Positions 39,966 through 56,400 of a DNA stretch of 64,000 bases are shown here, one piece after another. Within the stretch, counting starts at the first letter, position 1, and every line of letters begins with the position of its first letter. The stretch comes from Eledone cirrhosa. Taxonomy: Eukaryota. Both the position numbers and the translations under genes were made by a program. The DNA lies in contig CAXHJY010001189.1 of NCBI GenBank assembly GCA_964016885.1, forward strand, positions 95,361 through 159,360, read 5' to 3'. The notes below the pieces were generated by a model. It saw only the letters and a program-made list of their open reading frames with translations, was not told the origin of the DNA and did no database searches.

Positions 39966-40120
39966 ATATATATATATATATATATGCAAAAGTTCTATTT
40001 AAATTGTTGGGATACAACAAGCAAATATTTTTATAACTGATATAAAGCACTCGACAAGTATTTGGAGTAGATATACGATATTAACAAATGGAAACTATAT
40101 TTATAAAACCATATTTATTT

Positions 40121-40185
40121 TATTTCATTATACATATTTCAAGGATACCAAGTTAAATTATGGTATGCCTTCATCAGACAAAATA
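40121..40185 (-). ncRNA. Type I hammerhead motif (mirror copy of 40295-40359)
   Basis: Reverse complement of the + strand motif. Confidence 0.65.
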
Positions 40186-40294
40186 CAATACCGTTACTTT
40201 TGGAAGACATCAGGACATCCTGATGTCTTCCAAAAGTAACGGTCGCATTTTGAAAGGGTGCGTCAATGTTTATTTATAAAACTGGTATATATTG

Positions 40295-40359
40295 TATTTT
40301 GTCTGATGAAGGCATACCATAATTTAACTTGGTATCCTTGAAATATGTATAATGAAATA
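40295..40359 (+). ncRNA. Type I hammerhead motif, minimal PLE type
   Basis: Stem I TATTTTGT/ATGAAATA (two G-U pairs); CTGATGA; stem II AGGCATACCA...TGGTATCCTT; GAAA; quasi-palindromic stem III ATATGTAT; UH = TA. AATAAA overlaps the 3' side. Confidence 0.65.
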
Positions 40360-52277: not shown

Positions 52278-52379
52278 ATATATATATATATATATATATA
52301 TATATATATAGTTTATATATATAGTATATATATAGTATATATATATAGTATATATATATATATATTTATTTATTTATGA

Positions 52380-53487
52380 AAATAAACCAAAGAAGCCTTC
52401 AATACATCAAAAGTCTTTATTAGCCAGTAATGTTTCGTCCTATACCGGCCCTACAAGGAGGTGTATATAGGGACGACGCCCTGTTTACCGTTAGGAACCA
52501 TAGCCCCCGTAGGATAGAGAATCTTAACAAACATATACACAGGTTCTTCAAGTCATACGGCCTATCCGTAACTATGAACCTCAACCACAGGGTTATCAAC
52601 TTCCTAGACGTGACCCTGGAGTTTAGTACCGGCTTATACAAGCCATACCATAAGCCTGGAGAGTGCCTCTCTTATATTAATTATGCCTCTAACCTCCCTA
52701 AGCAGACTCTCAACTCCATAGTCTATAGTATCTCACACAGAATCTCGAGGCTATCCGCCAATGAGGATATCTTCAACCAAGCGGCAGATTACTACAATAG
52801 GGCCCTGATAAGCGCCGGCTTTAACCGAGGAATTTCTTACATCCCTAACGCTAGCTCTAGAAACCACCCCCCTCATAAAACAAACGTTATAGTAAGCCAT
52901 ACCTATAACCGATCACGCGGCGACCTCGTTAAAGTCGGATATAATAGAATAGATAACCGCACCAAAGATCACGACCCCGGCGACGGTGAACACTGTAGAT
53001 TACTCGAACTATTCCCCTATTACAAAACCAACAAAGGCGACGGCCTACTACCAACGCCTTCCAACCAACATCTTCGTGTACATAAACATGGAAGAGGTAG
53101 GAAGAGTGCACCCGAGCATAAAGTGAAAGGGGCACCGAACGGGCGACTGCGCATTAACACACATAAGAGCGGTCACCTAGATGGAACCACCCGTAGCAAA
53201 AGTACAAGGACACGTAATCGCCACCGTAACGTCCTATGGTTCCCACCCCTACTCTCGAAGTGTGGCCTCCAACATACCCCGGATGTTCTTCGAAGCCCTA
53301 GAGAAGAACTTCCCACCCAACCATAGGTATAGAAAAATTCTTAATAGGAACAATATAAAAATATCCTTCTCTACTACTCCTAACCTAGCAGACATCATAG
53401 GAACAACGAACCACAGTAAGATCACCAAGACACAGCACCTCGAAACAGACGAACCTACACCTGACAATAACTATATCGGCCTTAACA
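52380..53487 (+). mobile_element. Penelope-like element RT C-terminal/thumb fragment (Naiad-like) with an inverted pLTR tail at its 5' junction
   Basis: YRDDALF, INFLDVTL, YKPYHKP...YINYASNLP, ISHRISRLS, WFPP/PYSRSVASNI...FPPNHRYRKILNRNNIKISFS...NLADII. Bases 52380-52445 read on the minus strand as GGAC-GAAA-CATTACTGGCTAATAAAGACTTTTGATG, similar to the tail at 48415-48450. Confidence 0.85.
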
Positions 53488-56400
53488 TATATATATATAT
53501 ATATATAAATATATATATATATAGTATATATATATATATAGTATATATATATATATATATATATATAGTATATATATATATAGTATATATATATATATAG
53601 TATATATATATATATATAGTATATATATATATATACTATATATATATATATATATATATAAATATATATATATATAGTATATATATATATATAGTATATA
53701 TATATATAGTATATATATATATATAGTATATATATATATATATATATATATATATATATAAATATATATATATAGTATATATATATATATATAGTATATA
53801 TATATATATAGTATATATATATATATAGTATATATATATATATATAGTATATATATATATATATACTATATATATATAAATATATATATATATAGTATAT
53901 ATATATATATAGTATATATATATATAGTATATATATATATATAGTATATATATATATATATATATATATATATATATATATAAATATATATATATAGTAT
54001 ATATATATAGTATATATATATATATAGTATATATATATATATAGTATATATATATATATATATACTATATATATATATATATATACTATATATATATATA
54101 TATACTATATATATATATATAGTATATATATATATATATATAGTATATATATATATATATATAGTATATATATATATAAATAGTATATATATATATATAT
54201 ATATATATATATATATATAGTATATATATATAGTATATATATATATATATATAGTATATATATATATATAGTATATATATATATATATAGTATATATATA
54301 TATATATATAGTATATATATATATATATATATAGTATATATATATATATATATATAGTATATATATAGTATATATATATATATATATAGTATATATATAG
54401 TATATATATATATAGTATATATATATATATATATAGTATATATATATAGTATATATATATATATATAGTATATATATATATATAGTATATATATATAGTA
54501 TATATATATATATAGTATATATATATAGTATATATAGTATATATATATAATATATATAGTATATATAGTATATATATATAGTATATATATATATAGTATA
54601 TATATATATATATATATAGTATATATATATAGTATATAGTATATATATGTATAGTTTATATATAGTATATATATGTATAGTATATATACGTATAGTATAT
54701 ATACATATAGTATATGTACATATAGTATATATATGTATAGTATATATACATATAGTATATATACATATAGTATATATATGTATAGTATATATACATATAG
54801 TATATATACATATAGTATATATATGTATAGTATATATATATATATATATATATATATAGAGTATATATATACATATATATATATAGTATATATATATATA
54901 TATATATATATATATATATATATATATATATATATATATATATATATATATATATATATATATATATATATATATATATATATAGTATATATATATATAT
55001 AGTATATATATATATATATATATATAGTATATATATATATATATATATATATATAACGAAGGAAATGTGGTAAGGAACCAGGTGGACCATAACGCACCAA
55101 AGTACTCAATACTTGAGGTAGTAGAGTGGGTAATAGGAACCAGTAAGACCCCGACAGCTGAGCTCAAGCCGTTTCGACGGCTAATTCTGGACTGAATTAG
55201 CCATCGAAACGGCTTGAGCTCAGCTGTCGGGGTCTTACTGGTTCCTATATATATATATATATATATATATATATATATATATATATATAGTATATATATA
55301 TATATATATATATATAGTATATAGTATATATATATAGTATATATATATATATATATATATATATATATATATATATATATATAGTATATAGTATATATAT
55401 ATATATATATATATATATATTTATATATATATATATATATATATATTGTATATATATATATATATATATATATATATATATATATATATATATATATATA
55501 TATATATAGTATATATAAATACAATATCGGAGAAAGCTTTTTAGCGATACTCCGGCCAAATTCCAACTCACTCAACAAACATTAGGAAATAAGTGATTAT
55601 ATTCCCAATTTATGTAGGAGCCTGTATACCATCAATAGATATATATTCAAGTGGGCTCCTATAATTCATCAGTGGGTGCCCCAATAATACTAAAATTGAT
55701 AATCTAACCAACATCAGCATTTAGCGATAATCACTTTCTGTGCCTGAGGTATCTGTCAGGTAGCCAGTCCAGCAGTTCTGAAAGAAGTGCTCGAACTGAT
55801 TCAAAAAATGAGGAAGTGAATTACCGCCAAAAAAAAACAATACATGCGCGGCACAATGGACTCTGAAAGGAATTCAGGCCACATGCTAAGAACTCAATTG
55901 GAAAATTGAAAAATATCTATGTGTGTACAACATTTGATGACACACACAGATATATATATATATATATATATATATATATATATATATATATATACATATA
56001 GTATATATATATATATACATATAGTATATATATATATATACATATAGTATATATATATATACATATAGTATATATATATACATATAGTATATATATATAT
56101 ATACATATAGTATATATATATATATAGTATATATATATACATATAGTATATATATATATATATATACATATAGTATATATATATATAGTATATATATATA
56201 TATACATATAGTATATATATATATATATATACATATAGTATATATATATATATAGTATATATATATATATAGTATATATATATATATAGTATATATATAC
56301 ATATATATATACATATATATATATAGTATATATATACACACATATATATATATAGTATATATATACACACATATATATATATATATATATAGTATATATA

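Follow-up and report, generated by a model that had tools for sequence, protein, structure and literature searches.

Short head-to-head palindromes in the genome of Eledone cirrhosa as probable paired, 5′-truncated ends of Penelope-like elements

The window considered here is a stretch of 64,000 nucleotides from Eledone cirrhosa (contig CAXHJY010001189.1, positions 95,361 to 159,360 of the forward strand), and all window positions are counted from its first letter. Five inverted repeats (elements 1 to 5) lie within it, at about the places given for them in the original prediction, and their arm coordinates were recovered; the seeded inverted repeats number five in the window vs. 0–1 in each of 20 local shuffles. 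Their parts are listed in Table 1. Further pieces of Penelope-like elements (PLEs) are found at 52424–53486 (+), 49531–48590 (−), 45443–45222 (−), and 43855–43738 (−), comprising an RT fragment, two 3′ fragments that carry GIY-YIG and their ends, and one more family-5 end together with its tail. LINE-type RT/endonuclease ORFs are located at 45435–47489, 49897–51696, 62798–64000, and 57779–60690, and three related LINE-type copies form the long inverted repeats of the window. An ankyrin-repeat-like exon was recognized by eye at 22542–23048.

Table 1. Features of the five inverted repeats and their immediate surroundings, in window positions.
Feature	Position	Strand	Remarks
Putative SINE-like repeat, 3′ part	39834..39966	+	inverted partner of 40798–40930, 99% over 133 nt
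Family-1 tail, one side only	39986..40073	−	same sequence 3′ of the arm in other copies
Element 1, tailed arm, 5′-truncated family-1 PLE end	40074..40189	−	hammerhead core 40177–40171
Element 1, junction	40190..40217	−	26-bp fold-back copying the 5′ end of the other arm, with a 2-nt loop
Element 1, tail-less arm	40218..40401	+	5′ end 70 nt longer; core 40303–40309
Element 2, tail-to-tail inverted duplication around TA run	40420..40765	.	no hammerhead
Element 2, family-2 3′ fragments, 135 nt each	40439–40573; 40746–40612	+; −	both joined to the same A-rich SINE-like end
Putative SINE-like repeat, inverted partner	40798..40930	−	
Family-3 tail, one side only	48017..48087	−	seen in other copies
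Element 3, tailed arm	48088..48150	−	core 48148–48142; helix I disturbed by junction
Element 3, tail-less arm	48149..48214	+	complete minimal type I hammerhead, core 48154–48160
Element 4, tail-less arm	48238..48362	−	core at 48326
Element 4, tailed arm	48363..48475	+	core 48387–48393
Family-4 tail, one side only	48476..48571	+	in L028 continues into RT ORF
Family-5 tail, one side only	55056..55132	−	
Element 5, tailed arm	55133..55193	−	3′ half of family hammerhead, core absent
Element 5, tail-less arm	55194..55248	+	core absent

Element 1 is not a simple palindrome: its arms (40074–40189 and about 40287–40401) differ by a 5-nt indel, an inner 26-bp palindrome occupies 40190–40243, and 70 nt are present in the right arm only. 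In its tail-less arm the GAAA of the hammerhead lies at 40340–40343, and cleavage is predicted after 40351. The inverted repeats of elements 3, 4, and 5 have arms of 69 nt (48082–48150/48152–48220), 115 nt (48236–48350/48363–48477), and 45 nt (55133–55177/55204–55248), respectively, and the tail-less arm of element 4 includes a natural 12-nt loop (48351–48362) that the other arm lacks. Overlooked in the original prediction was a family-specific tail of 70–98 nt that flanks the palindrome on just one of its sides in elements 1, 3, 4, and 5, and that in each case runs from the arm to the TA run. All ten arms had been described as reading outward from the centre as a full or partial hammerhead, usually followed by an AATAAA/ATTAAA-like signal. 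The head-to-head orientation holds for elements 1, 3, 4, and 5, but the arms of element 2 point inward; CTGANGA cores are present in both arms of elements 1, 3, and 4 but in neither arm of elements 2 and 5; and the AATAAA/ATTAAA motif occurs in both arms of elements 1, 3, and 4, is absent from element 5, and is antisense in element 2.

Element 2 is of another kind. Its inverted repeat consists of 172-nt arms (40420–40591/40594–40765) with two mismatches, and in family sense both arms read towards the TA run at the centre. Family-2 copies elsewhere end at the TA side and extend past the outer end of element 2, and since the family sense runs to the TA side, the “partial hammerhead” assigned to this element is an antisense look-alike. 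The surrounding region (39800–40960) is a nested inverted block: the 3′ end shared by its SINE-like pair is private to that pair, and a short copy of this end, inverted around a TA run, is joined to element 2. Element 2 is likely to have arisen by local inverted duplication, around the TA run, of one truncated insertion and its flank. At the other family-2 loci, copies are arranged head-to-head in 15 of 28 and tail-to-tail in none. The parent of family 2 is a tandem repeat whose unit measures about 500 nt and has two fixed ends separated by about 76 nt. Its longest stop-free frame does not exceed 68 aa, neither strand of the 425 nt scanned contains a hammerhead core, and no ORF-bearing parent was found; a genome search for the family gave 1747 candidates. 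Copies at four loci (L053, L060, L063, and L039) end beside TA in the two-site manner of PLEs and have a tail motif resembling that of family 4, and family 2 is accordingly put forward as a candidate non-autonomous PLE that lacks a ribozyme. In L005 (about 1100–1200) and L015 (about 1710–1810), sequences of other families were also seen as tail-to-tail palindromes with a TA run at the centre, as in element 2.

Elements 1, 3, 4, and 5, as judged from their sequences, are the 3′ ends of four long endonuclease-positive PLE families. The connection to PLEs that had been proposed for the five repeats is thus borne out for these four families by other copies, which have GIY-YIG ORFs upstream in the same orientation. 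In family 4 a GIY-YIG C-terminus lies 2.03–2.32 kb upstream of the arm at six loci (81–100% protein identity); in family 5 the distance is 0.77–0.88 kb, at no fewer than five loci; and in family 1 it is 1.5 and 1.8 kb, at two loci (L124 and L170). The parent assignment of family 3 is the weakest link of the four: a GIY-YIG ORF, of one ORF family, is found upstream in 4 of 20 loci, separated from the arm by a microsatellite tract that contains nested repeats. A family-4 arm, then its tail, then an RT ORF follow one another in a row in L028, an order seen in this family only. A genome search with element 4, in which 40 of 1188 candidates were scored, recovered four further palindromes and 35 one-arm matches at 99–100%, many of which extend upstream. 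Genome searches with the arms of elements 1 and 3 and with the tail plus arm of element 5 gave no matches, probably because highly frequent words are passed over, and copies of these families were taken from the collected stretches.

All four parent ORFs carry a Cys-rich linker before a GIY-YIG-like motif, for which the Pfam GIY-YIG match (E = 0.0067) is below the cut-off; Pfam gave nothing useful on the RT fragments. A database homologue of 726 aa, 31% identical to the C-terminal part of family 4, was used for structural comparison, and its predicted fold (pLDDT 89.8) has telomerase RT as its two best structure matches (TERT in Foldseek, E 3e-9), with other RT classes close behind. No named PLE was matched at the sequence level, Pfam being empty in four homologues and the PDB sequence search likewise empty, and Atlas matches are to unnamed or HTH_animal clusters. 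The GIY-YIG ORFs, the Cys-rich linker, and the telomerase-RT-like fold together identify the families as endonuclease-positive PLEs; the Neptune clade label, which is suggested by the Cys-rich linker and the TA targeting, is offered as a lead only. L028 (6460–8026), L029 (2213–4574), and L151 carry another PLE family, the ORF of which contains an asparagine-rich insert, and such an insert is also described in rotifer PLEs (PMC3846280).

With regard to the ribozymes, Rfam reported no match at the gathering score in the window, hammerheads included, nor a hammerhead family among 55 weak matches in four loci. In families 1 and 3 the core is conserved, N7 is variable, and helices I and II are paired: helix I has at least 5 bp in 43 of 58 family-1 variants and at least 4 bp in 14 of 19 family-3 variants, with a compensatory pair present in the latter, both pattern-selected sets including related families. 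Monomer folds are not unusually stable (z-scores −0.08 to −1.3), and the same has been described for minimal PLE hammerheads (PMC4209133); the three-way junction is the MFE structure only in the natural copy of family 5. A pattern search for a canonical core before the family-5 stem gave no matches, because the core of this family is a U3-A8 variant, found in 25 of 37 long copies; element 5 of the window starts below it. The family-5 U3-A8 hammerhead, with N7 as A, G, or C and a long helix III, is seen for example in L029 (7629–7745, −), L127, and L183, and may, on its predicted structure, cleave as a monomer. In families 3, 4, and 5, AG-ending pyrimidine tracts border the hammerhead on its 5′ side or lie within it, and they resemble the intron end at helix I of Drosophila Penelope.

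The prevalence of such pairs was assessed in a sample of 1.0 Mb, made up of 99 ten-kb stretches at fixed positions and one beside the window; a general palindrome scan of its first 600 kb gave 43 calls, some of them low-complexity or duplicate. The census used single natural copies as references, and three of these came from the unselected set. Across all DNA collected, 334 arms yielded 76 head-to-head pairs with 5′ ends no more than 45 nt apart, 21 of which are unselected. Pairing is undercounted, because several arms counted as single do have a partner that is short or diverged. Extrapolation of 21 pairs per 1.0 Mb to 3.0 Gb suggests that the genome holds roughly 6 × 10⁴ short pairs of three families, as a lower bound. 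Exactly one tail was found in all 21 unselected pairs, in 41 of 42 pairs unselected on junction, and in 74 of the 76 overall; two tails were never found. Among 29 more distant pairs, 26 have one tail, two have two tails, and one has none. Of 41 pairs, 19 have a tail-less arm that is longer by at least 3 nt, 8 have a longer tailed arm, and in 14 the two arms agree within 2 nt. A tail-less arm longer by at least 5 nt was seen in 14 of the 41, of which 10 pass and 4 fail a strict ungapped match to a natural copy; in elements 1 and 4 of the window the tail-less arm is the longer one too. Junctions show an overlap of 0–7 nt or a short insert, and 147 of 152 outer ends have TA no more than about 20 nt away, vs. 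a background of 12%. The arms of one pair resemble each other more closely than those of different pairs, with median differences within and between pairs of 1 and 4 in family 5, 2 and 11 in family 3, and 3 and 18 in family 1.

The 5′ extents, which rest on few reference copies and for family 1 are limited by the divergence of these, are not evenly spread. In family 5, 39 of 42 unselected arms end at or before 66 nt, and in family 3, 14 of 19 end at 57–71 nt. TATA-like boxes are present in these two families at 90–96 and 95–98 nt, with an Inr-like site at 65–67 in family 3, so that the 5′ ends of both families pile up about 30 nt below the boxes; families 1 and 4 do not clearly share this spacing. 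This pile-up may point to cDNA synthesis running off the 5′ end of the RNA in the upstream pseudo-LTR (pLTR), with the AG-ending pyrimidine tracts near the same places as a rival landmark for the arm ends. Truncation at the ribozyme cut site was rejected, as the arm ends lie 30–45 nt further 5′, as was a spliced-RNA template, with no recurring upstream exon at short-arm junctions.

Set beside the directly observed family membership, one-sided tail, variable junction, TA at the outer ends, and within-pair likeness of the arms, the reading that we favour, at a probability of roughly 70%, is that elements 1, 3, 4, and 5 are paired 5′-truncated PLE 3′ ends formed anew at each insertion by priming on two strands and joining. 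Each strand of a cut TA repeat would prime its own short cDNA, the outer RT start site being used on one strand to give the tailed arm and the inner site on the other to give the tail-less arm. Both cDNAs would stop after about 45–180 nt, perhaps on reaching the 5′ end of the RNA in the case of families 3 and 5, and would then be fused by end-joining with a short overlap or insert, sometimes with a local fold-back as in element 1 or at a natural hairpin as in element 4. The hammerhead would be included only when a cDNA was long enough. The whole of this scheme is inferred from the end products alone. It agrees with the “template-switch product” that the original prediction had allowed as one alternative. 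A more specific form of it is offered tentatively, and is somewhat less likely to be right than wrong: twin priming would take place at a single cut, with one RT subunit per start site on the 5′ pLTR of a single RNA, and the palindromes would be two run-off (“strong-stop”) cDNAs whose centres mark the RNA 5′ end.

The most serious rival is fold-back of a single molecule, in which one cDNA or antisense RNA copies itself into the second arm. It would account for the near identity of the arms of one pair, for the 26-bp fold-back in element 1, for the centring of element 4 on a natural 11-bp hairpin at three loci, and for the eight of 41 pairs in which the tailed arm is the longer, and self-priming on an antisense template has been proposed for PLEs (PMC3846280). 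A copy, however, cannot exceed its template, yet the tail and the extra 5′ sequence are on opposite arms in 10–14 of 41 pairs and also in elements 1 and 4 of the window; neither arm is then a copy of the other, which argues for two primings. The two arms of L067, moreover, come from different subfamilies. As the source of the short palindromes in general, fold-back is thus considered unlikely, although self-priming also occurs, as the true 26-bp fold-back in element 1 and the natural hairpin at the element 4 junction demonstrate, and a hybrid of fold-back and second priming is possible. Fold-back at helix II was also tried as the source of element 5 and rejected, the apparent hairpin there being a product of the inversion.

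The original prediction had favoured one hammerhead-defined family of non-coding mini-elements, and palindromes that propagate themselves through mobilization by PLEs would fit the narrow size range, the recurrence of one family-5 junction (65/55) at 14 loci, most with one shared CpG G-to-A change, and the recurrence of the element 4 centre at three loci. The arms are instead the ends of four separate ORF-bearing PLE families, and arm lengths extend up to kilobase-scale copies with ORFs. Thirteen of the 14 loci were retrieved via a query bearing that junction or via the window itself, and the loci were ranked by likeness to such a query; they span several subfamilies, and the tail belongs to the longer arm at 10 of them and to the shorter at 4. 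There are 24 distinct junctions in 25 family-5 pairs unselected on junction, and with junction and tail side both variable, copies have no fixed internal structure in common of the MITE-like kind. Both arms reach the core plus 4 nt in only 5 of 21 unselected pairs, and neither does in 15. Self-propagating mini-elements are therefore distinctly improbable, and the ribozyme motifs are likely passengers on short palindromes and not the mark of a new family. Smaller still is the probability of two independent insertions in one TA run, or of later inverted duplication of one insertion. This reading suits element 2, in which both arms are truncated at the same point, have a common flank, and face a TA run in a tail-to-tail arrangement found at none of the 28 other family-2 loci, but in elements 1, 3, 4, and 5 the 5′ ends abut with no TA between, the arms match in subfamily, and there is exactly one tail, so that it is disfavoured for the head-to-head class. 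An assembly or library fold-back artefact could be suspected because the window is on a short unplaced contig (159 kb) and no piece of the run X1 contigs spans a palindrome centre unchanged, one contig at element 1 being 2 nt short. Chimeras, though, do not make one-sided tails, arm mismatches, or family-natural loops; similar structures are present on large contigs (21 in 1.0 Mb, three families); and run X1, which may be the source sample, provides a 75-nt piece without differences across 40392–40466 and depth over the element 1 centre. The probability of an artefact is consequently very small.

Several of these features have counterparts in known systems. Craig et al. (2021, PMC8557442) describe insertions of endonuclease-positive PLEs with an inverted 5′-truncated copy, in which often just one end carries the tail, and head-to-head palindromic junctions in PLEs have been attributed to self-priming (Arkhipova et al., 2013, PMC3846280). 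The pairs described here share with those PLE units (PMC8557442, Fig. 2; PMC3846280) the head-to-head truncated copy, one-end tail, palindromic junction, and TA target, as well as a telomerase-like RT, C-terminal GIY-YIG, and Cys linker. They differ in that both copies are too short for an intervening ORF and in tails of 70–98 nt vs. 30–40; the strict one-tail rule and the longer tail-less arms are counted here, whereas PMC3846280 proposes self-priming on an antisense template. Hammerhead pairs on opposite strands, 100–700 bp apart, with a U3-A8 core among them, have been ascribed to truncated PLEs (PMC4209133); an extra nucleotide after the core, a long helix II, a palindromic loop 3, and the U3-A8 variant are common to both sets, but the long helix III of family 5 is unlike those hammerheads, and cleavage here is a prediction. 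The PAc element (Poseidon, Anolis) cuts and extends on both strands in vitro, and two adjacent RT start sites bound its tail (Frangieh et al., 2024, PMC11167929). The two bounding start sites, the AT-rich target, and a hammerhead dispensable for insertion are shared features; inverted structures and the joining of two cDNAs are not addressed in the accessible text of that work. Non-LTR retrozymes (bioRxiv 10.64898/2026.07.22.740005) are similarly short, non-coding, and PLE-derived with a type I hammerhead, but are head-to-tail tandem units with a ribozyme each, unlike the head-to-head ends of ORF-bearing elements seen here; family 2, although tandem and ORF-less, has no core and so falls outside them.

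In L1 twin priming, two primings at one target generate an inversion, and the second primer starts internally, which yields non-overlapping segments. In the pairs considered here, by contrast, both primings would start at the 3′ end module, which would yield a palindrome. No literature pairing Penelope pseudo-LTRs with twin priming was found, and supplements and subscription papers may hold one. Inverted 5′-truncated pLTRs, one-sided tails, and opposite-strand hammerhead pairs are already published; new here are the pair counts and the limitation of the 5′ ends of two families to about 30 nt below TATA-like boxes.

The structure is thus of a known kind, and its value is mechanistic, in that how PLEs make inverted repeats is named as an open question in the accessible literature and that short pairs allow tail side, arm length, and junction to be counted. 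A single read-through transcript would, as had been predicted and as follows from the sequence, form a long hairpin that masks the ribozyme; if read through, the palindromes are predicted to give long double-stranded RNA, and they would mislead hammerhead surveys. Should twin priming at a single cut prove to be true, tens of thousands of genomic palindromes would provide a fossil record of the late stages of PLE integration.
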